Assembly: GCA_963745835.1 (NCBI GenBank)
Contig: CAVUZH010000018.1
Span: 416,001 to 480,000, forward strand
Source: an uncultured delta proteobacterium
GTDB lineage: Bacteria; Desulfobacterota; Binatia; UBA9968
Length of the DNA stretch: 64,000 bases
Direction: 5' to 3'
Shown here: positions 741 through 51,562 of the stretch, in pieces
How positions within the stretch are numbered: the first letter of the stretch is position 1
Layout of the letters: every line of letters begins with the position of its first letter
Notes under the pieces: generated by a model
The model's input: only the letters and a program-made list of their open reading frames with translations
What the model was told of the DNA's origin: nothing
The model's database searches: none
Program-made: the position numbers and the translations under genes

Positions 741-760
741 TATTGGACCAAAGTCCAATT
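741..760 (+). promoter_or_regulatory. Palindromic box copy 1, upstream of the formate dehydrogenase operon
   Basis: TATTGGACCAAAGTCCAATT. Confidence 0.8.
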
Positions 761-954
761 CCTGATATCTTCCCGTTCTGATATTGCAATTACGAATCAA
801 GGCGATCTTGCCACTGCTGGGATCAACCGTTCGACAATCTGCGCATTTTGCTCCGTCATTGCCTGCGGCGATACGAAACCACCGCTGGACGGGCTCGATC
901 TGCTGCTAAATCACGGGGACCCCAAGAGGTCGGCTAGCCCGTGTAGAGGGAAAA

Positions 955-3900
955 ATGAAAACCGAACATGAAGATGAGAAAAGACCGGACGACGAAGAGG
1001 GCGCGGCCAACCCGGTCTCTCTAAAGTCGACACGCCGCCAGTTTCTTAAAGGATTGACAACCGGCACGGTGGCGATCGGCGCGTTGACGCAGTCCGGTTG
1101 CGCTCCGGCGATCCCGCCGCTCAAGACCCGCGGCGCAACGGAAACGAGGACGGTCTGCCCTTTTTGCGGCGTCGGCTGCGGTCAGGTCGTCGCGACGCGC
1201 GAGGGCAAGGTCATCAACATCGAGGGCGATCCCGCCCACCCGATCAGCGAAGGCACGTTGTGCAGCAAGGGAGCTTCGGCGATCCAGGTGGTGAACAACT
1301 CGCGGCGCTTGCAGAAGGTTCTCTACCGAGCTCCGGGCGCGAAAGCGTGGGAGGAAAAAAGTTGGGATTGGGCGCTGGAGCGGATCGCCGCGCGAGTCAA
1401 AGAAACCCGCGATAAAACGTTCAAGACGAATCAGTGAGAAGGGCGCGTGGTAAATCGCACCGAGGCGATTGCTTGTCTCGGCGGTTCGGCGCTGGACAAC
1501 GAGGAGGCTTATCTCCTCGTGAAACTGATGAGGGCGCTTGGCCTGGTGTACGTCGAACACCAGGCCCGGCTCTGACACAGCTCCTCGGTCGCCGGTCTGG
1601 CGGCCTCATTCGGCAGAGGGGCGATGACCAATCACTGGATCGACATGCTGAACGCCAACGTCGTCCTGATCATGGGCGGAAACCCGGCGGAAGATCACCC
1701 GATCGCGATGAACTGGCTGGCGCGCGCCAAGGAGCGCGGCACCTATATCCTGCACGTCGACCCGCGTTTCAATCGCACCAGCTCGATAGCGGACGTGTTC
1801 GCCAAACTGCGCTCGGGAACCGACATCGCTTTCGTCGGCGGCATGATCAACTACGCCATCGAGCATAACCGCATTCAGGAGGAGTCCGTGCGCGAGTACA
1901 CCAACGCCTCCTGGATCGTCGGCGACGGCTACAGCTTCACGGACGGGCTGTTTGCCGGCTACGATCCCAAAACCAGACGCTACGATAAATCCCAGTGGAC
2001 CTACGCGCAGGACGGGCAGGGACGGCCGCGGCGCGATCCCACGCTCAAACATCCCCGTTGCGTGTTTCAACTATTGAAGCAGCACTTCTCGCGCTACGAC
2101 GCCGACGCGGTGTGCCGGATCACGGGCACGCCGAAAGAAAACTACCTGCGGGTTTGCGATCTCTATACCGGGACCTATGCTCCCGACCGCGCCGGCACTT
2201 GGCTGTATGCCATGGGGACGGCGCAGCACAGCCACGGCACGCAGAACATTCGCTCTTACTCCATCCTGCAACTACTGCTCGGTAACATCGGGGTCGCCGG
2301 CGGCGGCGTCAACGCCATGCGCGGCGAATCCAACGTGCAGGGCTCCACGGATCAGGGGCTGAACTACGACGGCTTGCCTGGATACCTGCGGCTTCCGGTC
2401 GAGGCTGATGCAGATTTGAAAACCTATCTCTCACGGGTGACGCCGATCAGCCACGATCCTGGCAACAGCGCCAACTGGCTGCAGAACACGCCGAAGTATG
2501 TTGTGAGTTTGCTGAAGGCGTGGTGGGGAGAGCAGGCCAGCAGCGAGAATGAATTTGCTTTTAATTACCTGCCGAAGCTTGGCGCCGGATTTGAGGGACA
2601 GGGTTACGCTTTCCTCGCGCTTACCCACGCCATGCTGGCCGGCGAAGTGAAAGGACTTTTCTGCTTCGGTCAGAACCCAGCGGTGGGTGGCGCCAACGCG
2701 CGCTTGATACGCGCCGGACTGGACAAGCTCGATTGGATGGTGGTCGCCGACTTGTTCGAGCATGAGACCGCGAGCTTCTGGAAGCGGCCGGGCGCCGATC
2801 CGGCGCGGATCCCCACAGAAGTTTTCGTTCTACCCGCCACCTCCGGCGTCGAGAAAGAGGGCAGCATCGTCAACAGCGGCCGCTGGGTGCAGTGGCGCTA
2901 CCAGGCGATCAAGCCCATCGCCAATTGTCGCCCCGACCTCGATATCGTCGACGGCCTCGCCAAGGCCATGAAGCGCGCCTACGAAAAAGACGGAGTATTC
3001 CCGGAGCCAATCCGCCATCTCGCGTGGGACTATGGAGATCACGCGGATCCTCATCGAGTTGCCCGCGAATTGAACGGACGTTTCCTGGTCGACGTCACGG
3101 AAAAAGATGGCAAGACCTTCGCGGCCGGCAAGCAGGTGCCGGGCTTCACGCAACTGCGCGACGACGGCAGCACCATGTCGGGCAACTGGATTTATTGTGG
3201 CGGCTACACGGAAGAGGGCAACCTGGCCGCGCGCCGCGAGATGACCGATGCGCCGAACGGTATTCAGCTCTATCCGAACTGGGCCTGGGTGTGGCCGATG
3301 AATCGCCGCATTCTCTACAACCGCGCCTCGGTCAATCGTAAAGGGGAGCCGTTTAATCCACGCAAATGGGTGATCCGTTGGGACGCTGAAAATAAAAAAT
3401 GGGAAGGCGATGTTCCCGATGGCGCCATGCCGCCGGGCGAGACCAATCCCTTTATCATGCTGGCGTCCGGGGTTGGCCAGCTCTACTCGCCGGACCTGGC
3501 CGATGGTCCCTTTCCAGAGCATTACGAGCCGGTGGAGAGTCCGGTTAAAAATCCATTCTCAAAAATCCAGTCGAGTCCGTGCGCGCAGATTTGGCATTCC
3601 AGCGAATTCGATCGCTACGGCAAACCCGATGTTTTCCCGATCGTCGCCACGACCTATCGAGTTTCCGAACACTGGCAGACCGGCGCGATGAGCCGCAACA
3701 TGCCATGGCTCGCGGGCCTCGTTCCGAGCGCCTTCGTTGAAATCGGCTCGGCGTTGGCCAAGCGTGAAGGGATCAAGAACGGCGATCGCGTGATTGTGAG
3801 CAGCGCGCGAGGTTCCGTCGAGGTTTACGCGTCTGGTCACCGAACGCTTCCAACCGTTTTTTATCGAGGGACAGAATGTCGACGAGATCGGCCTGCCGTG

Positions 3901-4039
3901 GCATTGGGGCTATGCGGGCATCGTACCTGGCGACATCGTCAATGATCTCACCGCCAGCGTCGGCGATCCCAACTCGTACATTCCCGAGAGCAAGGTGTTC
4001 CTCTGCAATATCAAGAAAAAGGACCGCGCATCAGCTTAG
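955..4039 (+). CDS. fdnG: Selenocysteine-containing Mo/W-bisPGD formate dehydrogenase alpha subunit (FdnG/FdhA type), Tat-exported; extra in-frame TGA at 1435 and +1 frameshift near 3832
   Basis: Tat motif STRRQFLK; CPFCGVGC...C Fe-S motif; EHQARL-TGA(1573-1575)-HSSSVAGLAASFGRGAMTNHW matches the FdnG Sec site; MRGESNVQGSTD; after the shift the frame reads LVTERFQP...GLPWHWG...VGDPNSYIPESKVFLCNIKK to TAG 4037-4039. Confidence 0.9.
1573..1622 (+). promoter_or_regulatory. Bacterial SECIS element immediately 3' of the Sec UGA
   Basis: TGACACA GCTCCTC GGTCGCC GGTCT GGCGGCC TCATTCGGCA GAGGGGC: upper stem GGTCGCC/GGCGGCC with GGUCU apex, lower stem GCTCCTC/GAGGGGC. Confidence 0.8.
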
Positions 4040-4068
4040 CGCAGCCGGAAAGAATCGGAACAGATGAC

Positions 4069-4159
4069 TCACCACGAAGGACACAAAGATCACGAAGGGA
4101 AGAAGAAAGTTAATAAATCTCTTCTCCGAACTTCGTGTCCTTCGTACGCTTCGTGGTGA
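4069..4159. repeat. Hairpin with 9-bp periodic arms between the fdh alpha and beta genes
   Basis: TCAC-CACGAAGGA-CACAAAGAT-CACGAAG ... CTTCGTGTC-CTTCGTACG-CTTCGTGGTGA. Confidence 0.8.
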
Positions 4160-4204
4160 ATTCAGGCCCAGAAAATTTGCTGTAACACGAAAAAGGACGC
4201 GTAA

Positions 4205-5014
4205 ATGAGCACACCGACAGTGAAGCCGAAAGCGATGATTCAGGACAATACCCGGTGCATCGGCTGCCGGGCGTGCATGGTCGCGTGCAAATCGTGGAAC
4301 GACCGGCCGGAGGACAAGACCGATTTCTTCGCCGGCGAGGGTTACCAGAACCCGCGCGATCTCGACGCCAACAACTACAACCTGATTACTTTCAACGAGA
4401 TCGTTACCGGCGCCCAGCCCGATTGGGTATTCGGGCGCCAGCTGTGCATGCACTGCGAACAGCCAGCCTGCGCCTCGGCGTGCCCGACTAACGCGATGTT
4501 CAAAACGGATCTCGGCCCCGTCGTGTTCGACGAGTCGCGCTGCATCGGTTGCCGCGCATGCATGCAGGCATGCCCATTCATCATTCCGAAATATGACTAC
4601 GAGAGCTTCGCGCCGAAGATCCACAAATGCACCTTCTGCGCGGATCGCTTGGAAGTTGGACTCGAACCGGCATGCGCGAAGGTATGTCCGACAGGCGCGA
4701 TCACCTTCGGGGATCGCGACGATATGGTTGCCGAAGCGAAGCAGCGGATCGCGGCGGCCCCGGGGACTTACATTCCAGAGATTTACGGCCTCGAAGAAGT
4801 TGGCGGCACCAGCGTACTGCACCTGTCATCCGTGCCGTTCGAACAGATCGGTTACATTACCGGCTTGCCGAAAACGCCGATGCCGGACCTCACGCACCGA
4901 TGGCTGCGCGTCACGGCGCCGGTGTTTGCTGTGTTGTACGGGGTGTTTGGCGCGCTCAACTGGATCGTGCGCCGGCGCATGCGCAACCAAGGCCACGACG
5001 GAGAGCACACATGA
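4205..5014 (+). CDS. 4x[4Fe-4S] electron-transfer subunit (FdnH/HybA/NrfC family) with C-terminal membrane anchor
   Basis: CIGCRACMVAC, CMHCEQPACASACP, CIGCRACMQACP, CTFC...PACAKVCP; YGLEEVGGTSV; C-terminal TM helix. Confidence 0.9.
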   Translation: MSTPTVKPKAMIQDNTRCIGCRACMVACKSWNDRPEDKTDFFAGEGYQNPRDLDANNYNLITFNEIVTGAQPDWVFGRQLCMHCEQPACASACPTNAMFKTDLGPVVFDESRCIGCRACMQACPFIIPKYDYESFAPKIHKCTFCADRLEVGLEPACAKVCPTGAITFGDRDDMVAEAKQRIAAAPGTYIPEIYGLEEVGGTSVLHLSSVPFEQIGYITGLPKTPMPDLTHRWLRVTAPVFAVLYGVFGALNWIVRRRMRNQGHDGEHT

Positions 5015-6192
5015 ACTGGCGCATCCGGCTTACCTGGTGGGATAAATTGCTGCTGGTGATTATGGCGGTGGCAGCCATTGTCGGCTTTGTGCGGTTCGCG
5101 ACCGGCATAGGCACCATCGCCAATATCAACAATGCCTACCCATGGGGCTGGTGGGTCGGTTACGGCATCATGACGATGATCGCCATCGGAGGCGTCGGCT
5201 TCACGATGACGGCGCTCGTGGAGATCCTGGGCGTGCATCGCTACCACTCGTTCCTGCGTCCCGCCGTGCTCATGGGCCTACTCTGCTACATCAGCGCCAT
5301 CACCATGCTCATGGTGGAGCTTGGCCGGCCGTGGAAAGTTTGGCTGGTGCTGGTGTCCTGGGCGCCGACCTCGGCGCTGTACGAAGTCGGCTGGTGCGCG
5401 TTTTTGTATCTCACTGTGCTCGCTTTGGAATTCGCGCGGGTTCCGCTCGAGCAGGCTGGCTGGCAGCGCGCGTTTCGCATCGTGAGCGCGATTTACATTC
5501 CGATCATGCTCCTCGGCGTCACCCTCTCGCACCTGCATCAGTCCTCGCTCGGCACTTTGATGACTCTGATCCCGCACAAGGTGAACGAACTGTGGTGGTC
5601 GGATAATTTGCCATTGCTCTATCTCTTCTCCGCCATGATGGCCGGACCGGCAATGGCGATCCTCGAGCATCTTGCCGCGGCGCGTTGGCTCGGCTTCGAG
5701 CCGCGCATGAATCTGCTCGCCGGCCTCGCGCGCATCGAAGCCTGGCTCGTCGGCCTCTTCCTCGCCTTTCAGATGGGCGATCTTTTCTACCGCGGCGCCG
5801 CCGACGCGATGTTGAGCGCATCGTGGTTCGCCGTGTCTTTCTGGGTCGAAATCGGTTTGGGCTTGCTGCTGCCGCTCGCTCTGCTGCTGATGCCCGAGGT
5901 GCGCGAAAGCCGGCGCGGCCTCGCCACCGCGTGCAGCTTGATAATAGCCGGCGTATTACTGCACCGGCTGAACGTGGCCGTGATCGGTCTGCGCGTCCGG
6001 CACTGGGAAACCTACGTGCCTTCCATGGGAGAAATCGCAATCACATTGGGCATCACTGCGGCGGCCCTATTTGTCTTCGGCTGGCTGGCGCGCGTCCTGC
6101 CGATCCACGAAGAGTTGCCGCCGCCGCACACTGCTCGTCGTCTTTCTGCTCAACCAGCCGGCGTATTGCGAGGAGCCGAAGGAGTATCGTGA
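5011..6192 (+). CDS. NrfD/PsrC-family integral membrane subunit (HybB-like)
   Basis: ATGA overlap with the upstream gene; YPWGWW, ELGRPW, LSHLHQSSLG, RLNV motifs; about 10 TM helices. Confidence 0.88.
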   Translation: MNWRIRLTWWDKLLLVIMAVAAIVGFVRFATGIGTIANINNAYPWGWWVGYGIMTMIAIGGVGFTMTALVEILGVHRYHSFLRPAVLMGLLCYISAITMLMVELGRPWKVWLVLVSWAPTSALYEVGWCAFLYLTVLALEFARVPLEQAGWQRAFRIVSAIYIPIMLLGVTLSHLHQSSLGTLMTLIPHKVNELWWSDNLPLLYLFSAMMAGPAMAILEHLAAARWLGFEPRMNLLAGLARIEAWLVGLFLAFQMGDLFYRGAADAMLSASWFAVSFWVEIGLGLLLPLALLLMPEVRESRRGLATACSLIIAGVLLHRLNVAVIGLRVRHWETYVPSMGEIAITLGITAAALFVFGWLARVLPIHEELPPPHTARRLSAQPAGVLRGAEGVS

Positions 6193-6193
6193 C

Positions 6194-6774
6194 ATGACGA
6201 CGGAACGACCAGAATCCCGAAATTTAGGTTTTCGCGTCTTCGTGTTTCTGGCAGTGCTCGCCAACCTGATCCTCACCATCGCTCTGATCTCTCAGGTACG
6301 AGAGGTTCAGCAGCGGGTCGAGAACCTGCCGCCGGATCTAGCCAGCAAACGCGATGTCGCCGCGCTCCGCCCGCTGCAGGGTGCGCCAGATTCTGACGCA
6401 GAATTGCGTCGAGTGTCACAGCACGCGCCGACTTGGAACAACTGTCTCCATGGAGCCGGCGGAAATACAGCGCACCATCGAGCATTTGCCAAGCCACACG
6501 TCGGTTAACATCCCAAAAGAAGAAATGGAACGCATCACCGCTTCTCTTCTAATTGCCCGCTGCGCGCGGTGCCATGGCGAGGAGACGCTAAATCTTGATG
6601 GTGCTCAAGACGCCGCCCGAGCGCGTCGCGACAATCCGCCGGATGGCGGCGCTCCCCGGCTCGGGCGTGCGAGCGGATCAGGTACTCGCCACCGCGCAAG
6701 CGTTTGAGAAGATCATCGAGCGAGGCGATACAGATACTAACCGTCAGCAGTCGGCAGCTCAGGCGTCCCGTTAG
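6194..6774 (+). CDS. Membrane-anchored diheme c-type cytochrome (two +1 frameshifts near 6380 and 6597)
   Basis: N-terminal TM helix, CVECH and CARCH motifs, C-terminus MVLKTPPERVATIRRMAALPGSGVRADQVLATAQAFEKII, reconstructed across three frames. Confidence 0.72.
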
Positions 6775-6797
6775 TCAGAAGCTTTTTTAGACAGCGC

Positions 6798-7015
6798 TTG
6801 CCAAGCCACACGGCGATCAACATCGCGCAAGATCAATTGGAATCTATCAGGTTCCCTTCTGTTGCCCGCTGCGCGCGTTGCGGCGAGGACAGGCTAAATC
6901 TTATGATGCTCAAGACAGTGGCCGAGCGCATCGCGACAATCGCGCGGGCTCCCCGGCTCGGCGTGCGAGCGGATCAGGTACTCGCCACCGCGTGGGCTTT
7001 TGACAAACTGATTCA
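6798..7015 (+). pseudogene. Degenerate tandem copy of the 3' half of the diheme cytochrome gene
   Basis: Aligns by eye to about 6486-6718; the heme motif has lost its His codon (CARCH to CARCGE) and there are small deletions. Confidence 0.8.
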
Positions 7016-7243
7016 TGAAACGGGTGGCGGCGGAGCGAGTAGTGCGAACTTGAGCAGCTACATGATAAACAGTTGTGCTGCCAAATCACGGAGCGATAGT
7101 TCCTCATAAGCTCGGCCCCAGTGAAACTGAAGGCGCGGCGAGGTATTCGATCTCAATATCAATATCAATCTGAAGAAACGCTAGGCCGCGGCTCGATGTA
7201 TGAAACGAATGGATGCAATGTCAGGCAGAAAGGAGCCTTTCGC

Positions 7244-7900
7244 GTGAAGGCAATTATTTGTCTGATTGCCGCAGCATTGTTCAGCGCCTGCGCTACGGTT
7301 TCTCCGCGCGATGCGATGCAGGTAGATGTTGATCAAGCAGCGGCCATCATCGAACGGTTTGAGGCGATCCCGGAGAAAGAAATTCCGCCCGCCGTCATGC
7401 GCGGAGCCAGGGGTGTGGCGATTCTTACCGTCACAAGGGCCGGGTTTATTGGTAGTGCCAGGGGCGGTACTGGAGTTGTCGTTGCGCGGACGGAAAAAGG
7501 TTGGAGCGCCCCTTCCGCGATCGGTCTGGGGGGAGTTGGCGTCGGTTTTCAAGCTGGGGTCGAGATCACCGAATTCGTTATTGTCCTCAACACTCCGGCT
7601 GCTGTTGATGCATTTGCCAAGCAGGGCAACGTCATGCTTGGAGGCAACCTCAGTGCGGCGGCAGGCCCTCTAGGACGCACGGCCGAGGCCGGCGTAGCTT
7701 TGCAGGCAACGATGTACAGTTATAGCCGGAGTCAGGGACTATTTGCCGGCATTTCCCTCGAGGGTACCGTCCTAAATACGCGAGATGACGCGAACACCGC
7801 CTATTACGGCAAGCTAGTTACGGCGGGAGAGATTCTTAGCGGCGGAGTACAACCGCCTGCGGGCACGCGGAATTTACTGACCGCTTTATCCAAATATTGA
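7244..7900 (+). CDS. SYLF/Ysc84 lipid-binding domain lipoprotein, copy 1
   Basis: AGGAG RBS, GTG start, lipobox LFSAC; GWSAPSAI, GFQAG, YSYSRSQGLFAGISLEG, NTAYYG. Confidence 0.88.
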   Translation: MKAIICLIAAALFSACATVSPRDAMQVDVDQAAAIIERFEAIPEKEIPPAVMRGARGVAILTVTRAGFIGSARGGTGVVVARTEKGWSAPSAIGLGGVGVGFQAGVEITEFVIVLNTPAAVDAFAKQGNVMLGGNLSAAAGPLGRTAEAGVALQATMYSYSRSQGLFAGISLEGTVLNTRDDANTAYYGKLVTAGEILSGGVQPPAGTRNLLTALSKY

Positions 7901-8115
7901 GGCAAGCGGAATATGCGGTCTAGTTGCGAGGGAGCTCATCGAGCTCATGATGAGCATACCCTTCCGCATGTATCCCTACACGATTTTCAATGCTATAAGA
8001 GGGCTAATAGCCCGAGTAAGTTTCCAAGTGCCGCGCAGAGTCGACAGAAGCGCAGTATCAGGGGACTGAATCGAACGAATGGATGCAATGTCAGGCAGAA
8101 AGGAGCCTTATTAAC

Positions 8116-8776
8116 ATGAAGATAATTATTTCTGTGATCGCTGCAGCATTGTTGAGCGCGTGCGCTACGCAGCTTTCTACGCGCGAATCAATGCAGGCAG
8201 ATATTGATCAAGCAGCGGCCATCATTGAACGATTTGAGGCGATGCCGGAGAAAGCAATTCCACCCGTCGGTCATAAAGGCAGCCAGGGGTTTGGCGATTC
8301 TTACCGTCACAAGGGCCGGGTTTATTGGTAGTGCCAGGGGCGGTACTGGAGTTGTCGTTGCGCGGACGGAAAAAGGTTGGAGCGCCCCCTCGGCGATCGG
8401 TACGGGGGGAGTTGGCGTCGGTTTTCAAGCCGGGGTCGACGTCACCGAGTTCGTTATTGTCCTCAACACTCCGGCTGCTGTTGAGGCGTTTGCCAAGCAG
8501 GGCAACGCCACGCTTGGCGGCAACCTCAGTGCGGCGGCAGGTCCTGTCGGACGCTCTGCCGAGGCCGGCGTAGGTTTGCAGGCAGCGACGTACAGTTATA
8601 GCCGGAGTCAGGGACTATTTGCCGGCGTTTCCCTCGAGGGCACCGGCATCAGTACGCGAGATGAAGCCAACGCCGCGTATTACGGTAAGCCGGTTACGGC
8701 GGGAGAGATTCTTAGCGGCAAAGTACCGCCGCCTGCGGGCACGCGGAACTTAACGGCCGCTCTATCCAAATATTGA
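8116..8776 (+). CDS. SYLF/Ysc84 lipid-binding domain lipoprotein, copy 2 (+1 frameshift near 8268)
   Basis: Highly similar to copy 1, lipobox LLSAC, with duplicated leader and trailer DNA. Confidence 0.85.
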
Positions 8777-8920
8777 TGCAAGCGGGATCGTGCGGTGGGG
8801 TTGCGAGCGAGCTCATAATGAGCGCGTAAAGTGTCCCTTCCGCATGCATCCCTGCACGATTTCAATGCTATAAGCCGACTACATAGTCCGAGTAAATTTC
8901 CAACTGCTTGCTAGTGAGGG

Positions 8921-8990
8921 GCTGCCCGGCTCGGGCGTGCGGGCCGGATCAGGTACTCGCCACCGCGCAAGCGTTCGAGAAGCTGATTGA
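8921..8990 (+). repeat. Third copy of the diheme cytochrome gene 3' end
   Basis: gctgcccggctcgggcgtgcgggccggatcaggtactcgccaccgcgcaagcgttcgagaagctgatt compared with 6651-6716. Confidence 0.85.
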
Positions 8991-9253
8991 TGAGGGTGAC
9001 CCTGGCGGACGGAATAAATCTACGACTAGTTCAGCCGCGCCGATAGCAAAACCGTAGAAGTCGATAAGGAGCAATACCATGAATCGAAATCGATGTTTGC
9101 TGGGATTGCTGGATCAAAAGACTCGAAAACGCCCGTGATTGAGTACAGCGATGGTCAAAGGCATTGGCCTGTTTGGCGGGCGGATTTTGGCCGTGCTTTG
9201 CTCGCAGAGCGTGGAAATTATTATAGGCGCTCGTAAGGAACGAAGGGAAAACT

Positions 9254-39267: not shown

Positions 39268-39274
39268 GAACGGT

Positions 39275-42382: not shown

Positions 42383-42950
42383 ATGACTCTGAATAAAATC
42401 AGAAAGATTTTAGCATTGGCGCTAATAATCGGCTCGGCACATGGGTTTTCCCCTACTATCGCACTGGCAACGACGCGCGAGCGCGATCGATCGTGATGCT
42501 CGATCGGTTTTGGATAAACTTTACAAGCTTATACCGGACGCAAAGGCTTTGGCCGACAAAGCCGTCGCGGTCTTGGTGTTTCCGAGCATTGTCAAAGGCG
42601 GCTTCATTATCGCGGGACAGTTTGGCGACGGCGCTTTAACAAAAAAGGGTAAGAGCGTGGCGTACTATCGATCGCTTTCCGCGTCTTATGGATACCAGGC
42701 CGGCATTCAGTCGTTCGGCTATGTGCTGTTCTTCATGGACAATGCCTCGCTTGAGTATCTTAACAACAGTGACGGCTGGGAGCTGGGAGTAGGACCGAGT
42801 TTGGTAGTGCTCGATGAGGGCTTCGGCAAGCACTTGTCGTCGACAACTCTGCAGAAGGGTGTTTATGCGTTTATCTTCGACCAGACGGGACTCATGGCCG
42901 GTATGGGTATACAAGGAACGAAAATCACCAGAATTAATCCGAATCCCTAA
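42383..42950 (+). CDS. YSC84/SYLF-related exported protein, third family member (+1 frameshift near 42475)
   Basis: AGGAG RBS, signal peptide; VLVFPSIVKGGF, SYGYQAGIQ, GLMAGMGIQGTKITRI. Confidence 0.8.
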
Positions 42951-42967
42951 CAGCAGCAAACGCTCAT

Positions 42968-43136
42968 AAGCACGAAACTCGAACACTTCGAAACGAATTC
43001 CAAATCAGTACAATCGAAGCATCCGAATGTTCCGAAACACGTCCTGATTCTCGATCACGTTTTGCGAGTCTCGAGCTCGAGATCGTTTGGCTGCGAGTCT
43101 TGTTTCGGATTTCGAGCTTCGGATTTCGGATTTTTT
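42968..43136. repeat. Hairpin with 7-bp periodic arms, same family as 13280-13468
   Basis: aagcacgaaactcgaacacttcgaaac ... ttgtttcggatttcgagcttcggatttcggattttt. Confidence 0.78.
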
Positions 43137-43154
43137 ATTTGAAGGAGAGAAGCG

Positions 43155-43646
43155 ATGAGAATGGACCTTGTGAAGAAAACAATTGGCGTTGCAATGGCGA
43201 TTATGGTTCTTGGCTGCGCCCCTTTGAGTTTTGCGCAAGACAAGCGGGCCGACAACATGGAAATTTTGCGCGACAAGATCAGGGCGGACAAAAAACTTGT
43301 TGTCGCGACTAATATGGAACTGACCGAGTCGGAGGCCAAGAACTTCTGGCCGATTTATGACCAGTATCAGAAAGATCTGCAGAATATTAACGGACGCGTC
43401 CTGGCCCTATTGGAGAGCTATGCAGCTGACTTCAAGGGCAAATCGCTGACCGATGACAAGGCGAAAAAACTCATCGATGAGGCGGTGGCGATCGATCAGG
43501 CCGAGGCCAATCTGAAAAGCACTTATGCGCCTCAATTGGGCAAGGCGTTGCCGGCGAGGAAAGTCGCGCGCTACATGCAAATTGAGAACAAGATCCGCGC
43601 CGTGGTGAAGTACGATCTCGCCCAGGGTGTGCCGCTGGTGCGCTAG
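43155..43646 (+). CDS. Exported alpha-helical protein, paralog B
   Basis: Clearly similar to 41858-42352 (ADKKLVVATNMELTESEAKNFWPIYDQYQ, KVARYMQIEN). Confidence 0.75.
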   Translation: MRMDLVKKTIGVAMAIMVLGCAPLSFAQDKRADNMEILRDKIRADKKLVVATNMELTESEAKNFWPIYDQYQKDLQNINGRVLALLESYAADFKGKSLTDDKAKKLIDEAVAIDQAEANLKSTYAPQLGKALPARKVARYMQIENKIRAVVKYDLAQGVPLVR

Positions 43647-43878: not shown

Positions 43879-43898
43879 TATTGGACCAAAGTCCAATA
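43879..43898 (+). promoter_or_regulatory. Palindromic box copy 7
   Basis: TATTGGACCAAAGTCCAATA (perfect). Confidence 0.85.
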
Positions 43899-44000
43899 TA
43901 CAGAGCTGGTGCTCTTCAGTAATAAATCCGTACTGACGAAATCTCTTCGAATTGCCGGTCTTGTTGCATATTGGGGTCGAGTTTTTAAAGGGAGAGTTAC

Positions 44001-44864
44001 ATGGCGAAAAGCAAGGCAGCGTTTTGCACATTGTTGATCACGTTGATTATGGCTGGTCCAGGATGGAGCCAAGACTTGGACGGCACTCTCAAGAAGATCA
44101 AGGCAGAGAGCACCCTGACACTTGGTTATCTCGAGTCGGCACCGCCATTCTCTTTTCCGGGACCGGATAGACGACCGGTGGGCTACTCCATCGATCTGTG
44201 CACACAGGTCGCAAGCGCGATTCAGAAACAACTCGGGATCAATCTCAAGCTTAACTGGGTGCCGGTCACGACGGAGAATCGCGTTGAGATGGTGGCATCA
44301 GGCAAGGTCGATATCGAATGCGGTACCAGCACCGCTAGTCTTTCCCGCCAGGAACGAGTGGATTTCAGTTTGATGACCTTTGTCGACGGCGGAGGCCTGC
44401 TGACCAAGTCCGACTTTAAGCTTGGCGCTATGGCCGATCTGGCGGATAAACGCATCGCCGTCATCCCCGGTACCACGACTGAGGCCGCATTGGGAAAATT
44501 CCTCAAAGAGGAATTTGTTTCCGTCAAATACGTTCCTGTCAAAGATCACGTGGAGGGGCTGGCGGCGATAGAAAAAGGCTCAGCTGAAGCGTTTGCCTCC
44601 GACCGCGGGATTTTGGTTGGACTTGCGGTCACCTCTAAGGACCCTAAGCTTTACGCCCTGCCGAATATCTTTTTCTCATATGAACCTTATGGATTCATGG
44701 TGCGCCGGAACGACGCGGACTTTCGCCTGCTGGTCAATCGAGCACTGGCCGGTCTTTACCGCTCGGGCGGCATCGCTCCTATTTACGACCGATGGTTCGG
44801 ATCTTTCGGCACCCCCAGCCCGGCAATAAAGGCGATGTATTTTCTCAACGCGCTCCCCGAGTGA
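44001..44864 (+). CDS. Amino-acid ABC substrate-binding protein (GltI-like, SBP_bac_3), orphan
   Basis: GTLKKIK, GYSIDLC, VDIECG, RQERVDFS, YEPYGFMVRRND. Confidence 0.85.
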   Translation: MAKSKAAFCTLLITLIMAGPGWSQDLDGTLKKIKAESTLTLGYLESAPPFSFPGPDRRPVGYSIDLCTQVASAIQKQLGINLKLNWVPVTTENRVEMVASGKVDIECGTSTASLSRQERVDFSLMTFVDGGGLLTKSDFKLGAMADLADKRIAVIPGTTTEAALGKFLKEEFVSVKYVPVKDHVEGLAAIEKGSAEAFASDRGILVGLAVTSKDPKLYALPNIFFSYEPYGFMVRRNDADFRLLVNRALAGLYRSGGIAPIYDRWFGSFGTPSPAIKAMYFLNALPE

Positions 44865-45134
44865 CAGATTTGCTCTGCAGCGACATTCGATTTGAGTCTC
44901 CAGAGATGAATTGGAGATTAGCAATCGGAGTTAAGCAAAGCCTCGAGTTCTCAGTTAAGCCATTTTCGTTGACTCGCCAGTCGACGTTCATCTATCAAGC
45001 CGCAACATCGGGTGCTGCGATTCTTTCGAATCCGCTTTGTTACTCCAGCAGGTTGCTGAAAAAAGCCCTCTTACAGTCTCTACTGTCCTGCCCCAGAAGT
45101 TCGCTCCGTTATGGCGCCGTCTTTCGCTGATTAT

Positions 45135-45352
45135 TAACCCTAATCCGACAATAGTTGAGCGCTGTCAGCAGTGAGCGAGGACGGCGAGGCTGCAAGCCGC
45201 GGGCATTCGAGCACGCAGTTGGCTCTAAGGCCCCGACGTACCAAACATCACCTTTAGGGTAATGTGGGGCGGCCTTCGAGGCACTGTCCCATTGCCCATG
45301 GCTGTAGGGCTCGCTGCCCTCGCGGGGTTCGAATAATGTCGGATTAGGATTA
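45135..45352. mobile_element. MITE-like non-autonomous element, 218 bp
   Basis: 19-bp terminal inverted repeats TAACCCTAATCCGACAATA / TAATGTCGGATTAGGATTA (2 mismatches) plus an internal ~30-bp inverted repeat. Confidence 0.65.
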
Positions 45353-45512
45353 GTTAGTTTTATCAGGGCGGTTCGATGGCCGGATATCTAAGTCGAAAGA
45401 GGATTTCTCGTGCCACAATTGTGCGGCGGTAAAGCGCACCCATTGTCGCCGAAAAGCAACCGCCGCGGTTCGAGAAAGCAATCGAGCAATTGATTGCCGC
45501 GGCATTAATCCC

Positions 45513-48500
45513 ATGAAATTACCGCGCGCCATCACATTCGCCGGGGCCGCTGCTGCGGTCGTAATAGTCGCGGCCGTTGCCAGTGCGTTGCTTCTTCCCT
45601 GGCTCATCGACAGCCGGCTGGTCAAAGAGAAAATCAGCTCGGAATTGCTCAAAAGAACATACGCGAGCGTGATCTTCGACAAGATCACCCTTCTGTGGTT
45701 TCCCTGGCCCACCTTGGTCATCGAGAACACCGAAATTTCTCTTGAGGACAACGCCCGGGCTTCGATTCGCAGTGTCAGGATCTATCCGTCGATTTATCAT
45801 CTGCTCACCGGCAGACTCATCGTGCACCGAGCGCTGTTGCAGGAGCCCCGAATAACCTATCGCGTGCCGCAGCATCCGGGAACACCGTTGGATCTCGAAG
45901 AGTGGGAAGAACAAATTCGCTCTGCTTTGGTTCGTCTCACCGAAGAATCGCCCGCTTCGGACATACAGCTTTCCAACGGATCCGCTGAGATCAGCATCGG
46001 TGACAAACCACCGATGCTTCTCGAAGATGTGACGGCTCAAACGATCGCCTCCCCTGAACAGTTTCGATTTACGATCTCGGCACGCTCGAATCTCTGGGAG
46101 CAGTTGCGGGGCGAAGGGAGTATCTCTCCGGAAAGTCTCGAATCACAGTTACATGTAGGTCTCCAGCAGATCAACATCAGAGAGACTCTTGTTCTGATTG
46201 CGCCGCAGATTGCCGAAGGCGCGAGAGATGGCAAGGCGACCTTCGATATCAAGATGAGTTCCGTCGGTCTACGACACATGAAAGCAGCGGTCGACGGATC
46301 GGTCGGCCCGTTCGTTTTCACCGGACATGGCGGTACCGCTACTGTCGAGGCAAAGAGATTACGAGGCGGGATTACTTACGAAGGGAAAGTTTTCCAGGTC
46401 AACGTGGAGCAGCTAGAACTCGGATCGCCACGGCTGCAAGCTTCAGGACAGCTTAAAATCCAACCGGGTTCTTTATCTGCACAAATCAAGGTTCGCGACG
46501 TCAATATCGCCGAGGTCAACCATATGGCGCTGCGGTTGGTCGACGACACCGAACCGGCTAAGCGAATAATGCGCTACATTCCAGCGGGAACAATTCCGGA
46601 AGTAAATTTTCACAGTTCCGGACGTTCGCTTGCTGAAATGATCTCGAGCCAAAATATTGTAGTCGCCGCAGCGGTGCGTGACTGTAGGATATTGATTCCT
46701 GCCTATGATCTGGAGTTCAAAAATGTGGGCGGCTCGCTGCGAATTGCCAACGGCGTTTTGGAAGCTAGCAACGTCACGGCCAATCTTGGAACGGCGAAGG
46801 GGTGGAACGGCAAGCTCAGGCTTGGGCTTGATGGAAAGAGCGCGCCTTTTCATCTCGACATATCGGCGCACAGCGCCGCACCGGACCTGCACTCCTTCTT
46901 GCTGAAGACCGTCGACAAGGAACCCTTGCGCGGAGAATTGCTGAAGCTGCGAAACGTTTCAGGCGAGCTGTCCGGGAGAGTGGTTTTGGGCGACTCGCTG
47001 GATGCGATCTCACCGGTTGTGACAATTTCGGCATTGGCCATCAGCGCCAGCTATGAGGACATGCCGTTCCCCATCGAGATTAGACGCGGCCGGTTCAGCT
47101 ATGACCGAAGACTCATCAAGCTTGAGAACGCCCAGGGATCCGTAGGGCGCTCGATCTTTGACGGCGTTGGCCTGAGTTTGGATTCTCACGGAGGACGCCG
47201 GCTGAGCGTCGACTCGGGGCGGGTTTCTTTGGACCTGCAACAGATGGAGATTTTGCTTCAGCGCTTTAACAATGTGGCAGCACAATTTGCGAAGTTTCAG
47301 TCCGCGCGCGGCTCCGTCGAGTTGGAGAGACTCGCTCTCTCAGGAGCTTATGACGATCCTGCGGCATGGATCTTCGCGAGCGCGGGCAGATTCCATGGCG
47401 TTGAGATAACCCATGCAGATCTCCCTGGGCCGGTGACTGTCACCCGGGGACAATTCACTGCCAACCAGGAGAAATTTGATTTCTCGGAGACTGCGTTAGC
47501 GATTGCCGATGCTTCCTGGCTTGGTGCCGGTACATTCGAATACTTGAAAGAAGCATCGCGTTTTTTCGTCATCAAGGGGACGGGAACGATCGGCGCCCAA
47601 ATGACTGAGTGGCTCAGCCATCAAATCCAATGGCCCGAAGAGTTGAAGCTTCGTTCCCCTCTGAAAATTGCGGCAAAACAGCTGGCGTGGCGCGCAGGCG
47701 GGAACATCTCGTTTAACGGGCAGGTGACGGCCGCGGGTGGTCCGCAGCTTTCCCTGGTAGCGGTGAAAAATCCTCAGTGGCTCGGCGTGCAGAATCTTAG
47801 CATTCAGGATGGCGACCGGCGCGCCCGAGTGATCTTTTTAGTTGCTAAGGACCAGCTCGAGTTCTCGTTCAGCGGTGCCCTGGTGCAGCAAACGATCGAT
47901 AAGATATTTGCATCTTTTCCCACTAAAGATAGCGCTCTCAGTGGTGAGATCCAGCTAAGCGCTTCGCTGACCCGTCCCGTCAGGGTCTCCGCCCAAGGTC
48001 GATTAGAGGGAAGCAACCTATGGCTGCCCTTGGGAACTGAAAAAGCGCTGCTGGAAAGATTCGATATCGAGGCGAGCGGGGACAGCTTGAGCGTGCGATC
48101 CGCAGATCTCCTTTGGAGTAAGAGCCGCTTTGCCGTTTCGGGGAAAGTCGCCGGAACAAGGGAGAACCTCAGGCTGGATCTCGACGTTACCGGCGACCAG
48201 CTTGACTGGGAGGAACTCCAGCGTATTTTCGCCGGCGGAGGCAAGCAGCGGCAACCAGAAAAAGTCGGAGCGGAGTCTTTTCCGACGATGGAAGGCACGA
48301 TTCGCTTCAGAACGAACCGCTTCGCGTTTGCAGGTTTCGACTTTACCGCATTAGAGACGATGGCAACCATCTCCCCGTCAGGAATCAGAGCCAAGATTGA
48401 TCAAGCGATTGTGTGCGGAATCAATGTCATGGGACGCGTGGATGTCATCGGCAGCGAAATCGGAGTCGATGTGGAGCTCGCAGCGAGAAGCGCCCAGCTC

Positions 48501-49157
48501 GAGCCCACGACGGTTTGTCTCACGAATCGACAAAACCAGGTGACGGGATCCTATTCTTTGGCCGCGCGTCTTTTAGCACGAGGCGAGCGAGATCATTTGT
48601 TAAGAGCGCTTCAGGGCACTTTTGAGCTCACCGCTCGAAACGGTGAGTTCATTCGTTCACCGGGAATTGATGCTACATTCGACTACCTCAACGCTACCGG
48701 TGACTTCCAAACCGCATTCCCTGATCTTGATAGGCAGACGTTTCCTTATCGCTCTGTCGAAGTTAAGGGGAGGATTGAAGGCAAGATGCTGATAGGCGAT
48801 GAGATCAATGTTAGCTCATCCCGGATCAACCTGAGCGGCCAGGGCAGAGTCGACCTGGAGCGAAACCAGATTGACGGTAAAGGCCTCATCGCCGTCCTCA
48901 AACCTGTAGACGAGGTGATCCGCCGGATCCCGGGAATTAGGTCGGTGCTTGGTGGCTCCCTGTTAGGCATCCCCGTGCGAGTTACCGGTGAGCTCGAACA
49001 CCCCGATGTTAGCTATTTGTCGCCCGCAGACGTTGGCGCGGAGCTGATAAATATTCCATTGAGAATTCTCGGCGTGCCCATCGGCGCCATGAGGCTCTTT
49101 ACTCCGCGGCGTGATTTGCGTGATAGAAAATCACCAAGTCAGCCAAGCGGGTCGTGA
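45513..49157 (+). CDS. AsmA-like (YhdP/DUF3971-type) envelope-spanning protein
   Basis: 1214 aa, N-terminal TM anchor, beta-rich body, C-terminal GQGRVDL...IPGIRSVLGG...VTGELEHPDV typical of the AsmA_2 end. Confidence 0.75.
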   Translation: MKLPRAITFAGAAAAVVIVAAVASALLLPWLIDSRLVKEKISSELLKRTYASVIFDKITLLWFPWPTLVIENTEISLEDNARASIRSVRIYPSIYHLLTGRLIVHRALLQEPRITYRVPQHPGTPLDLEEWEEQIRSALVRLTEESPASDIQLSNGSAEISIGDKPPMLLEDVTAQTIASPEQFRFTISARSNLWEQLRGEGSISPESLESQLHVGLQQINIRETLVLIAPQIAEGARDGKATFDIKMSSVGLRHMKAAVDGSVGPFVFTGHGGTATVEAKRLRGGITYEGKVFQVNVEQLELGSPRLQASGQLKIQPGSLSAQIKVRDVNIAEVNHMALRLVDDTEPAKRIMRYIPAGTIPEVNFHSSGRSLAEMISSQNIVVAAAVRDCRILIPAYDLEFKNVGGSLRIANGVLEASNVTANLGTAKGWNGKLRLGLDGKSAPFHLDISAHSAAPDLHSFLLKTVDKEPLRGELLKLRNVSGELSGRVVLGDSLDAISPVVTISALAISASYEDMPFPIEIRRGRFSYDRRLIKLENAQGSVGRSIFDGVGLSLDSHGGRRLSVDSGRVSLDLQQMEILLQRFNNVAAQFAKFQSARGSVELERLALSGAYDDPAAWIFASAGRFHGVEITHADLPGPVTVTRGQFTANQEKFDFSETALAIADASWLGAGTFEYLKEASRFFVIKGTGTIGAQMTEWLSHQIQWPEELKLRSPLKIAAKQLAWRAGGNISFNGQVTAAGGPQLSLVAVKNPQWLGVQNLSIQDGDRRARVIFLVAKDQLEFSFSGALVQQTIDKIFASFPTKDSALSGEIQLSASLTRPVRVSAQGRLEGSNLWLPLGTEKALLERFDIEASGDSLSVRSADLLWSKSRFAVSGKVAGTRENLRLDLDVTGDQLDWEELQRIFAGGGKQRQPEKVGAESFPTMEGTIRFRTNRFAFAGFDFTALETMATISPSGIRAKIDQAIVCGINVMGRVDVIGSEIGVDVELAARSAQLEPTTVCLTNRQNQVTGSYSLAARLLARGERDHLLRALQGTFELTARNGEFIRSPGIDATFDYLNATGDFQTAFPDLDRQTFPYRSVEVKGRIEGKMLIGDEINVSSSRINLSGQGRVDLERNQIDGKGLIAVLKPVDEVIRRIPGIRSVLGGSLLGIPVRVTGELEHPDVSYLSPADVGAELINIPLRILGVPIGAMRLFTPRRDLRDRKSPSQPSGS

Positions 49158-49198
49158 AAATAGCCGCGCACGGATGTTCGACATTCGCAGAGGTCTTT

Positions 49199-49597
49199 AT
49201 GAATAGATCTTTAGGCTTCAAAATCATCCTCTTTTTGGCGTTTTTGCAAAGCGTTTTTGGTCTTATGCGCGCGTATAACTGGGTGCAAATTGGTGTCGAC
49301 ATTTTTGGTCAGGGAGGTTTGTTTTTGCCTTTAGTCGGTGCGTTGGCAGTGATGCGCGGTCTGATTATCTCGGTTGTTGCGCTGTTATATCTGTTGTCAG
49401 TTTTCGGAGCGCTGCTGGCAAAAGGTTGGGCTTGGTGGACCGGTGTGATCGCAGTCGTGCTCAACCTGCTGCTGGTTCTGGCTGGCTTAGCTCAAGGGGC
49501 TTCCGTATTGGACGCCCTGGTCTGGTCGGTAATCCCAGTGATCCTATTGTTTTATCTGTTTACTCCGACGAAGAATAATGCACTCAGGAGCGCATAG
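49199..49597 (+). CDS. Four-TM hypothetical membrane protein
   Basis: GAGG RBS; four hydrophobic helices. Confidence 0.6.
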   Translation: MNRSLGFKIILFLAFLQSVFGLMRAYNWVQIGVDIFGQGGLFLPLVGALAVMRGLIISVVALLYLLSVFGALLAKGWAWWTGVIAVVLNLLLVLAGLAQGASVLDALVWSVIPVILLFYLFTPTKNNALRSA

Positions 49598-49620: not shown

Positions 49621-49640
49621 TATTGGACCAAAGTCCAATA
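49621..49640 (+). promoter_or_regulatory. Palindromic box copy 8
   Basis: TATTGGACCAAAGTCCAATA (perfect). Confidence 0.85.
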
Positions 49641-49871
49641 GTTTTGCATTTTACCGTCTGCCAAATTACTGCCATACGAGATCGCCGAGCACAGCCCTGT
49701 TCTGGCTCATTGAACGATTCGCGGCATTAAGCCGCGAACAATCAGGAGCGTCGAGCAAGATCGGAAAGTAATAATGACGTTACTGTTCTGTTGACCAAAA
49801 TCCGACACACACCTGACGGAGTAACCATCGCGGTGCCAACCTCTTCACGGCGTGCCTTACAGGGGTGAAAT

Positions 49872-51424
49872 ATGGAGACTAGATATAAGTTGTACAAGGG
49901 CTTGTTGACGATTCTCGGACTGGCCTCTCTTCTGAGCGCGTGCAGTCCGGCGATCACCTGGGATTACCCGCGCACCCCGTCAAATCTTTTCGCACATCCG
50001 CAAGACCACTACCGTCGGCGCGCTGTTTCAGGAAGCGGCCGACAAGCATCCGGGACTATCCGGCTTCTCGGTTATTCGGCAAGGTGGTCCGGCGTTCATG
50101 GCTCGGCTGGCAATGGCCGAGTTGGCCGAAAAGACGCTCGGACGGGCAGTACTACATCTGGGATGGCGACACCAGCGGCCTGATCTTGGCCGACCGGCTG
50201 CTGCGTGCCGCCGACCGCGGCGTCCGTGTGCGCTTGTTGATCGACGACCATTATATGACGGAAACCAGAGACGCCAACATTGCGGCGCTCGACGCCCATC
50301 CCAGCATCGAGATCCGTTTCTTCAACCCGGTCAGGAACCGGCGGTGGCGCATGATGAGCTTCTTGGCCGAGTTTGGCCGGGTCAATCATCGGATGCACAA
50401 CAAGCTGTTCGTCATGGACAACGCTGTGGGAATTGTCGGCGGACGCAACATCGCGGATGTCTATTTTGGCGTGCGCACGGAGCATAACTATGTGGATCTC
50501 GATGTTATGAACGCCGGTCCGATCGTCAACGATTTATCGACGAGCTTCGATCTGTTCTGGAACAGTGAATGGGCGCTACCCGTCGGTGCGGTCGTGGAAG
50601 AGCGCGCGACCGAACAGAATTTGCGGGACTTTCGGAAACGGCTTGAGGAAAAACTCGCTGCCACCGGCTATCCGTATCCCATCGACGAACGTCTCGAGGG
50701 CCTTCGCTCGCGTTTGGTCGAGATCAGGGACACATTCACCTGGGCCCCGGCCAAAGTTTTGGTCGAGCATCCGTCCAGGGTTGCCACGGAAGCGGGCAAC
50801 GTTATCGCTTTGGCACTGCGCCAACGGGCCAATGAGGTGGAGCGCGAACTGTTGATCGAGTCGCCGTATTTTGTGCTGGGCGACCCGACGATCGAAAGAG
50901 TGCGAGAACTCACGGCGCGAGGTGTCAAGGTCCGCGTGTTGACCAATTCCGCCGCCTCTCATGACGTGCTCCCGGCGCTGGCGGGTTATGTCAATACGCG
51001 CAAGAAACTGCTCAATGCCGGCATCGAGCTGTACGAGTTGCGCGCGGATAGCGATATTCCACGGATCTGGTCGGTGTTGGCGGGAAAATCGGGAGCTGCG
51101 TTGCATTCCAAGTCCCTTGTGTTCGATCGCAAGTCGGTGTTCATCGGCAGTTTCAATCTCGATCCTCGATCGACGGCCCTCAACACCGAGATCGGTGTGA
51201 TGATCGACAGTCCGGAGATTGCTAGCCGGGTGGGAGAGTTGATGGATGAAGGGATCTCCCCCGGCAGCGCCTTTCACGTCACGCTCGACAAGAACGATAA
51301 TCTGGTATGGACCGCTGAGAACAACGAGGAAAAAGTGGAGTACGACAAAGATCCGGAGACAAGTTTCTGGCACCGGTTCGTTGTCGGTATCGTCGGCTTG
51401 CTGCCGATTGAGGACCAGCTATAG
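49872..51424 (+). CDS. Phospholipase D family lipoprotein, cardiolipin synthase ClsC-like (two +1 frameshifts near 50007 and 50141)
   Basis: Lipobox LSAC; QYYIW, RMHNKLFVMD and LHSKSLVFD HKD motifs, GSFNLDPRS. Confidence 0.85.
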
Positions 51425-51542
51425 AGGGGCTGTGGCGGGATTTTTCAAGATAACAGGAATCGAACGTCTTAGGTTGCTCCCGGATTTCTGGATTGAGCTG
51501 TGCTGTTTTCGTGCGAGTCGCGCGGCAACGAACATTGTGGCG

Positions 51543-51562
51543 TATTGGACCAAAGGCCAATA
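51543..51562 (+). promoter_or_regulatory. Palindromic box copy 9
   Basis: TATTGGACCAAAGGCCAATA (1 mismatch). Confidence 0.8.

Follow-up and report, generated by a model that had tools for sequence, protein, structure and literature searches.

A strict 20-bp palindrome ahead of some 22 promoters, a probable operator of a FixJ/StyR-type response regulator in an uncultured soil bacterium

What acts on a 20-bp palindrome that recurs in front of one operon after another in the genome of an uncultured delta proteobacterium? Nine copies of this box were pointed out in an initial annotation of a 64,000-nt stretch of contig CAVUZH010000018.1 (C18:416001-480000, hereafter the window, whose positions are given without prefix). 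We consider it probable, on the sequence evidence presented here, that the palindrome is the operator of one phosphorylation-dependent response regulator of the FixJ/StyR type, which would serve as class II activator of about 22 promoters. In the proposed mechanism, a kinase would phosphorylate a 229-aa regulator, and the phosphorylated dimer would occupy the box about 43.5 bp upstream of each transcription start, where the box would share two bases with a weak -35 element. From there, as LuxR does at the lux box, StyR at STY2 and EL222 when placed at the lux-box position, the dimer would recruit RNA polymerase in the class II mode of activation. About 22 promoters would be switched together, 17 of them heading successive co-directional operons of one genomic island and five lying in two small loci. 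The functions so switched would comprise Mla lipid transport, MscS, a porin, carbonic anhydrase, universal stress proteins and RND efflux with nrfHA, as well as a selenocysteine formate dehydrogenase (FDH), fumarate reductase, compatible-solute and sugar enzymes, patatin, AsmA/YhdP and a phospholipase D (PLD). We infer that the regulator binds the box, that it activates rather than represses, and that the physiological theme is an anaerobic or energy-limited, envelope-stress state; annotation and site conservation suggest that genes of anaerobic respiration and of envelope and stress functions are controlled together.

The window was searched with TATTGGAC-N4-GTCCAATA at up to three mismatches, with dinucleotide-preserving shuffles (n=100) as control. 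Exactly nine matches were found, all on the + strand, at 741, 12360, 28450, 34483, 36659, 41738, 43879, 49621 and 51543 (three mismatches at 34483 and two at 36659), so that every copy annotated initially was recovered; the shuffled windows held 0.06 matches on average, and nine were reached in 0 of 100. The spacers listed before (CAAA, CAAG, TAAG and TAAA, all in one direction) were likewise recovered, the central AA lying on the + strand in all nine. Each box occupies a gap between open reading frames (ORFs) upstream of + strand genes, as had been described, but the distance of 45-230 bp first given was slightly too narrow: from the box to the closest plausible start codon on the + strand, the distance is 44 to ~300 nt, with some uncertainty over the start codons of the genes after the boxes at 41738, 49621 and 51543. 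When 240 bp around each copy were aligned, the likeness was confined to the 20 bp and about 3 bp more, with unrelated flanks, and the box is therefore not part of a longer repeat.

The whole genome (7.28 Mb, 25 contigs) was scanned on both strands with a 23-position weight matrix built from oriented sites. The scores were bimodal: 22 sites fell between 25 and 40 bits, and those that followed reached just 20.1, 17.3 and 15.4. Seventeen of the 22 strong sites, the nine of the window among them, fall within C18:367342-467562 in one shared orientation, and the stretch of C18 from 364.7 to 468 kb is almost wholly co-directional. The remainder lie at C14:105249-105287, where two overlapping boxes with a 16-bp offset occupy a divergent intergenic region in the genome's only tandem arrangement, and at C25:197935-202845, where three boxes stand ~4-9 kb from the contig end. 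A matrix scan of the genome, which the initial annotation had recommended, thus returned 22 strong sites in three loci, and it enlarged the regulon of ~50 kb first supposed to ~100 kb plus two other loci, the window holding the right-hand half of the island.

The box has the consensus form YATTGGAC-YAAR-GTCCAATA, a 20-bp palindrome. Across 69 aligned sites, made up of the 22 of the source genome and 47 from five relatives (G001, G004, G005, G008 and G010) and in many cases orthologous, there is almost no variation at positions 2-20, T or C stands at position 1, and positions 21-23 favour TAC or GAC; position 20 is A in 91%, whereas the promoter-distal position 1 varies. In 69 of 75 sites (up to three mismatches, DNA examined from six genomes), the downstream gene is coded on the strand that carries the central AA, the AA itself having been used to orient the 69. 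An ORF of at least 90 aa starts within 400 nt downstream of 65 of the 69 AA-oriented sites. ORFs were present on the forward side only at 24 sites, on the reverse side only at 1, on both at 41 and on neither at 3, a noisy test of orientation, given how often antisense shadow ORFs arise at such a GC content, as the 41 two-sided sites indicate.

Promoter-like signals are phased with the box in the same alignment. TA begins at box position 42 or 43, that is, 21-22 nt past the box, in 57 of the 69 sites, compared with 0-8 sites at any other position from 25 to 69, and TT is enriched at positions 37-38. If this TA opens the -10 hexamer, the sequence TA(G/T)AC(A/G) at positions 19-24 forms a weak -35-like element, which matches TTGACA in 3-4 of six bases at 51 of the 69 sites. 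This arrangement implies a box centre near -43.5, the predicted geometry of class II activators, whose sites are centred at about -41.5 to -43.5, as measured from the phased TA and not from a mapped start. The LuxR box is said to overlap the -35 element, and EL222 over the -35 of the luxI promoter is reported to activate in E. coli (PMC5001607); phosphorylated StyR is reported to activate from the STY2 site at about -40 (PMC2442086). Since the box lies at the activating position of LuxR, StyR and transplanted EL222, activation would be the likelier mode.

The same geometry has to be weighed for a repressor, by which the same regulator on the same boxes would occlude the -35 element and the operons would be expressed when the regulator is unphosphorylated. 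The box does cover positions 19-24 with their -35-like TA(G/T)AC(A/G); furthermore, EL222 is described as repressing from a site between -35 and -10 (PMC5001607) and StyR as able to repress from other sites (PMC2442086). However, the match to the -35 consensus is weak (the 3-4 of six bases given above), as at activator-dependent promoters, and the box lies mostly upstream of the -35, its centre near -43.5 being the activating position of LuxR-type proteins, StyR and EL222. Although these are not direct evidence, they leave repression as an unlikely mode.

Which protein would act as the activator? The initial annotation had postulated a single dimeric regulator of the FixJ/LuxR type encoded outside the window and had advised looking near the island for a LuxR-type helix-turn-helix (HTH) regulator with its kinase. 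Both were found adjoining the first box, 49 kb upstream of the window, and the regulator is kept in relatives. In all 7.28 Mb of the genome, GerE-type HTH domains score above the family cut-off at two places only; one of these (C18:366992-367159; PF00196, 69.5 bits) belongs to the candidate regulator P0001 (C18:366506-367192), a REC+GerE protein of 229 aa. Its ATG follows 2 bases past the stop codon of the candidate cognate kinase (C18:364689-366503; MASE1-PAS-HisKA-HATPase), and the island's first box (C18:367342) lies ~150 bp past the regulator coding region. The best solved relatives of the regulator are StyR (1yio, 6e-60) and then FixJ (5xso, 2e-46); it aligned full-length to StyR residues 2-200 and to FixJ, the FixJ model covering residues 24-219, the receiver motifs DDD, LDVRMPG, MTGHG and PKP, as expected for an acidic pocket, phospho-Asp, Thr and Lys, were read by eye in the translation, and the C-domain aligns with those of StyR, FixJ, EL222 and NarL. 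With 221.3 bits against a cut-off of 255 for the NCBIfam FixJ equivalog NF006900, the protein is FixJ-like and not FixJ. The kinase core is similarly FixL-like, the FixL equivalog model matching residues 364-601 only (226 bits versus a cut-off of 850). Orthology to DosR/DevR was considered and rejected, as DevR ranks behind StyR, FixJ and NarL and the kinase has no GAF domain.

The recognition helix of this regulator is consistent with the sequence of the box. The sites of StyR and TodT had at first been cited for their similar geometry, but among described sites the EL222 consensus RGNCYWWRGNCY comes closest, together with the central part of the DosR box. The regulator helix EKTIKVHRARVMEKM aligns with the helix EKTVKMHRGLVMEKL of EL222, a LOV-HTH protein of Erythrobacter litoralis; the two are near-identical (EKTVKMHR versus EKTIKVHR; C-domain E 4e-14), and the position of Lys193 is Val in StyR and Arg in FixJ. 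The box core GGACYAARGTCC (GGAC-YAAR-GTCC) fits the EL222 consensus, quoted second-hand in PMC10521638, at 12 of 12 positions, and it shares the 10 bases CTTTAGTCCA with the C120 operator TAGGTAGCCTTTAGTCCATG given in the same source. The DosR box is reported as TTSGGGACTWWAGTCCCSAA, also a 20-bp palindrome (PMC2275270); its central 12 bases, GGACTWWAGTCC, equal the TAAA form of the present box, and its outer positions differ.

To what extent do box and regulator travel together? Among 30 related genomes searched at up to two mismatches, the motif-rich ones were G001 (6 matches), G004 (10), G005 (11), G008 (8), G010 (14) and G012 (5); G002 and G023 had 2 each, G006, G018, G019 and G021 had 1 each, and the remaining 18 of 30 had none. 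(G012 and G018 are unpublished, and no conclusion depends on either.) G004, G005, G008 and G010 each hold an orthologue of the regulator (69-93% identity), with a box 100-425 bp past the gene on the same strand, and G018 carries a 57% homologue. An orthologue was found in 0 of the 9 family genomes without a motif match. In an even sample of 300 other genomes of the phylum, none had more than 3 matches to an 18-mer with one mismatch, roughly as many as for a reversed control pattern, as compared with 21 in the source genome; the large expansion of the box is confined to the family of the source genome.

A wider scan, with one genome per species, gave 80 loci with homologues of 47-78% identity in metagenome-assembled genomes (MAGs) and isolates labelled as many phyla, the closest named ones being MAGs labelled delta proteobacterium or Desulfobacterales. 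A box was counted at 12 bits or more, and 79 of the 80 loci were scored, the remaining one (L063, which bears a box) being dropped because its alignment ends before the recognition helix. The presence and type of the box varied with the residue at the K193 position. With Lys (helix E-K-T-I/V-K), a box of the GGAC type was present at 18 of 25 loci, compared with 0 of 45 with Ile, Val or Thr; Ala was accompanied by a TTAGAC...GTCTAA type at 2 of 2 loci, Gly by GCAC / GTCTAA at the single locus (1 of 1) and Arg by a TTG(A/C)AC type at 2 of 4, and no box was found with Gln (0 of 2). In 17 homologue loci, the box lay within 1.2 kb past the regulator gene in the same orientation. Among the 16 annotated homologue loci, a histidine kinase gene stands just upstream of the regulator in 14, with sensors that vary between MASE1-PAS, PAS, GAF, Reg_prop/YYY and a periplasmic binding domain, and the box is followed by a receiver-only gene in 6 and by a universal stress protein, OmpA or DUF1269 gene in others.

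These observations bear on the possibility that another protein binds the palindrome and that the neighbouring regulator is coincidental, the candidates being a factor of the CRP/FNR family, for which a site at -41.5 with a 4-bp spacer would be typical, or the AraC-type protein encoded at 53942-54979 of the window. In favour of CRP/FNR, nrf, frd and fdh are, as is generally known, classic FNR targets, and HTH_Crp_2 is matched three times in the genome, twice above the family cut-off. A comparable locus of Burkholderia, lxa, is also reported to have an FNR-like motif (PMC3721108). Yet no HTH_Crp_2 gene lies in or beside the island, and in many phyla the box stands behind the gene of the GerE regulator, whose recognition residue varies in step with it. 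Moreover, the core fits the consensus of EL222, with its near-identical helix, and not TTGAT-N4-ATCAA, in agreement with the earlier remark that the site is not an FNR box. We regard binding by another protein as very unlikely.

Still less credence is due to an element acting in RNA, in which the box would be transcribed as part of 5' leaders, its 8-bp stem and YAAR tetraloop being bound by a protein or stabilising the transcript. Perfect copies fold strongly (-14 kcal/mol, z -4.2), and a role in the leader would account for the invariant orientation of the box to the gene. The degenerate copies, however, are unfolded (z -0.15 at 36659 and +0.88 at 34483), the uncompensated variant TATTGCCC...GTCCAATA of the fifth box is unchanged in another genus (G010), and the one-base variant GGCCAATA of the ninth recurs in another species (G005). 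The -10-like TA phased 21-22 nt downstream of the box also argues against such an element, and the whole window gave no Rfam match. Least likely of all is that the box is part of an alternative sigma factor promoter or a small mobile or REP-like repeat without regulatory role, for although the copies are near-identical and their spacing to the -10-like element is fixed, the dyad symmetry points to a dimer, and a scattered mobile repeat, which had been named at the outset as the finding that would overturn the regulon, is at odds with 22 strong copies in three loci only, with their unrelated flanks, with nine window copies that all face a start codon at 44 to ~300 nt, and with the control-like number of at most 3 matches in the 300 other genomes of the phylum.

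Several points nevertheless weigh against a phosphorylated FixJ/StyR-type activator as set out here. The activating position is derived from the phased TA rather than a mapped start, and the overlap of the box with the -35 region would suit a repressor too. A symmetric dimer gives no reason for the central AA always to face the gene. No box of 12 bits or more precedes the kinase-regulator operon in the genome scan, and autoregulation, which is common in two-component systems of such type, was therefore not seen. The PAS domain of the kinase had no match to the haem-PAS region of FixL and gave generic PAS matches only, which leaves oxygen sensing unsupported; the results give no support to acid as the signal either. 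The query found no regulator in two motif-bearing genomes, G001 (84% complete) and G012 (95% complete), and 7 of the 25 Lys-type loci had no box within the DNA examined. Finally, the Fisher value for the association of residue and box, 2e-11, overstates it, because the genomes are related and the matrix was built from the family's own sites, though the trend itself is clear.

The first ORF after each box was clustered across six genomes of the family. A receiver-only protein is first after a box in all six, as is an exported protein, represented by P0002 and a 589-aa paralogue; the formate dehydrogenase (behind the first box of the window) occupies this place in 5 of 6 genomes, and the RND adaptor heading the efflux-nrfHA run and the GH63-like hydrolase (behind the third box of the window) in 4 of 6 each. 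That site-gene pairs are kept across genera is as expected for a working regulon. The conserved receiver-only target suggests feedback on the phosphorelay, and probably provides it; Caulobacter FixLJ has a comparable feedback by a single-domain receiver. P0002 (L003:10473-11030) and the 589-aa paralogue (L001:11690-13459), which adjoins the regulator, had no Pfam or NCBIfam match, even at E 0.05.

The genes headed by the nine boxes of the window, all on the + strand, were called by ORF heuristics and family matches in Pfam and NCBIfam, and the -10 hexamers given here are sequence-based predictions from the TA phasing. The family matches bear out the initial labels of Sec-FDH, frd/fumarase, GH63-like/GH13, patatin, SYLF lipoprotein, family-3 solute binder and PLD. 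Box 1 (741..760; one mismatch, 29.2 bits; predicted -10 TATTGC at 782..787) heads a selenocysteine formate dehydrogenase operon (955..11972) with the FDH catalytic subunit at 955-3945 (in-frame TGA at 1435-1437), an NrfD-like membrane subunit, two SYLF/Ysc84 proteins, an EB_dh haem subunit, NapC/NirT and c-type cytochromes. The catalytic subunit is a single frame with this sole TGA, the Fe4S4 domain before it and the molybdopterin domains after it, and the TGA is consistent with a selenocysteine codon. Box 2 (12360..12379; perfect arms, 38.5 bits; predicted -10 TAGAAA at 12401..12406) heads frdC and a gene run (12486..28382) that continues with frdA, fumarase C, a short frdB and a DASS dicarboxylate carrier, and further holds a cNMP-binding membrane protein, a split aspartase-like lyase, DUF2252, a Na/Ca exchanger, a K channel and G6PD. 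Box 3 (28450..28469; perfect arms, 39.0 bits) stands before a GH63-like hydrolase, the first gene of an operon (28526..34304) encoding this GH63/MGH1-like enzyme in two frames, a SWEET-type carrier, a GH13 alpha-amylase family enzyme and a tandem universal stress protein.

The distal half of box 4 (34483..34502; 25.2 bits; predicted -10 TAATCT at 34523..34528) is degenerate and its proximal half intact; it heads a patatin-like phospholipase gene, followed in the operon (34547..36537) by that of a 196-aa protein without family match. Box 5 (36659..36678; two distal-half changes, 29.0 bits; predicted -10 TATTCA at 36701..36706) heads a membrane-protein cluster (36822..41665) of an AI-2E family transporter and four proteins without family match. 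Box 6 (41738..41757; perfect, 40.4 bits) precedes genes for a 164-aa protein of uncertain start, a BPSL1445-family SYLF lipoprotein and a 163-aa protein (41858..43646). Box 7 (43879..43898; perfect, 40.4 bits; predicted -10 TAATAA at 43920..43925 and predicted start near 43932) heads a family-3 solute-binding protein (SBP_bac_3), a 1214-aa AsmA/YhdP-like protein and a 147-aa protein (44001..49597). Box 8 (49621..49640; perfect, 34.4 bits) heads a phospholipase D / cardiolipin-synthase-like gene (49940..51424) for a PLD-domain protein of uncertain start, overlapped by a 103-aa ORF at 49872. Box 9 (51543..51562; one proximal-half change, 35.9 bits; predicted -10 TAGAAC at 51583..51588), the last of the island, precedes the gene of a small 135-aa protein after a ribosome-binding site (51693..52100), with a match to DUF2541 below threshold only. 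An AraC-family regulator gene (arabinose-binding domain and HTH) lies 2.4 kb past this last box at 53942-54979, and no link between it and the boxes was found.

Four genes appear split into two frames, namely those of the aspartase-like lyase (20330-21743), the GH63-like hydrolase (28526-31304), frdB (17145-17892) and nrfA (C18:415148-416570, reaching into the window at 13-570); each piece is part of one Pfam profile, and the splits could be assembly indels or real pseudogenes. DNA near-identical to 41650-51649 of the window occurs in rhizosphere, soil and winery metagenome runs of several studies. Over the same interval, soil metatranscriptome contigs from four runs are 90-99% alike over several genes, most pieces being 90-95% alike and hence derived from relatives. 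Among the longest of these contigs listed, pieces of the solute-binder gene begin at 43936, 43974 and 43983 (38-85 nt past box 7), a weak hint in agreement with the predicted start near 43932, as contigs cannot prove starts, strand or level; none of the longest pieces listed spans box 7, and missing cover proves nothing.

The left half of the island encodes an Mla lipid-transport system, DUF1269, MscS, OmpA, an OprB porin and carbonic anhydrase. Also encoded there are a tandem universal stress protein, DUF3300/DUF2950, carriers and an RND efflux system with nrfH and nrfA behind it, besides a sensor-less kinase that is accompanied by a receiver-only protein. At C18:396295-397812, this second, sensor-less FixL-like kinase (322 aa) stands directly before a box and the receiver-only gene. 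The pair of boxes on C14 is flanked by an OmpA-family operon on one side and by an uncharacterised 184-aa gene and an Hsp70-like gene on the other. Paralogues of island genes surround the boxes on C25 (C25:194000-204000), encoding REC-BON, an AI-2E transporter, patatin and MlaA, along with a TAT-signal protein. The GC content of the island is 56.3%, with a genome mean of 53.8% (sd 1.9%, 10-kb windows); its base composition gives no clear sign of recent transfer, and no tRNA genes were found as island borders in 119 kb.

How does this system compare with those already described? The mechanism is conventional and of the textbook kind, a NarL/FixJ-type regulator on a palindrome overlapping the -35. 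StyS/StyR of the Pseudomonas styrene operon and FixL/FixJ supply the best full-length solved relatives and the model for the FixL-like kinase core, and phosphorylation of StyR is reported to trigger dimerisation and activation from a high-affinity site at about -40 (PMC2442086); their targets are aromatic catabolism or fixK/nifA at one or two promoters, whereas here there are neither, and many promoters. EL222, reported to bind as a dimer and to activate over the -35 region, is a one-component, LOV-driven protein, whereas control of the HTH here lies with a receiver domain and a kinase; the candidate regulator, having no LOV domain, is not a member of the LOV-HTH family. The box is also longer and stricter than the EL222 site, being a 20-bp palindrome with an oriented centre and a large regulon. 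DosR/DevR of Mycobacterium tuberculosis, a NarL/LuxR-type protein with which OsdR of Streptomyces is grouped as a comparison system, is described as governing a regulon of ~50 genes that includes universal stress proteins. DevR is nevertheless distant from the candidate regulator (E 2e-15 for the whole protein, 1e-4 for the C-domain), and the Dos kinases are GAF-haem sensors, whereas the kinase here is of the MASE1-PAS type. The Dos regulon is scattered in several clusters, unlike the single 100-kb run here.

The nearest architectural parallel to the island is the lxa locus of Burkholderia cenocepacia, reported to hold 50 genes with one motif at 17 intergenic points and four co-regulated loci elsewhere, to be rich in universal stress proteins and to be patchily conserved among relatives (PMC3721108). 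According to the same report, the lxa motif is FNR/Anr-like (TGA-N6-TCA) with a presumed CRP-family regulator, whereas the island box and regulator are of another type, and low-oxygen induction was measured for lxa. Literature searches with spellings of the motif and with terms for LuxR/FixJ, inverted repeat and universal stress protein returned nothing on the box or the regulon. The initial annotation had allowed that the box might match a site already described: the code of DNA recognition is indeed known in kind from EL222 and DosR, but the regulator and regulon themselves are undescribed in the literature searched. The unusual features are the very strict 20-bp box, the 17 promoters in a 100-kb run and the central AA always facing the gene; it is out of the ordinary for a regulon to be so extremely concentrated in one co-directional stretch of 100 kb, although lxa offers a parallel.

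More tentatively, and with the balance of likelihood against it, the box and the Lys-type FixJ-like regulator may form one ancient module present in at least six phyla (Desulfobacterota-like lineages, Acidobacteriota, Planctomycetota, Verrucomicrobiota, Gemmatimonadota and Proteobacteria), with swappable sensor kinases and constant core targets, namely a receiver-only feedback protein, universal stress proteins and envelope proteins of the OmpA/BON/DUF1269 type. In the lineage of the source genome, the module would have grown into a 100-kb co-directional island that also took in the anaerobic respiratory chain, and the oriented AA might be a directional signal between the GerE dimer and RNA polymerase. 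If this is true, Gram-negative soil bacteria would have in the module a counterpart to the DosR dormancy regulon.

Taken together, the analysis provides a testable map of regulator, operator and targets for an uncultured bacterium of soil and rhizosphere. The co-variation of residue and base, which extends the code known from EL222 and DosR, also yields a simple rule of specificity for FixJ-like regulators of a large branch that is unstudied: Lys would pair with GGAC, Ala and Gly would both pair with AGAC, and Arg would pair with G(A/C)AC. In the bacterium itself, respiration with nitrite, formate and fumarate would be under the same two-component switch as envelope-lipid and stress functions.

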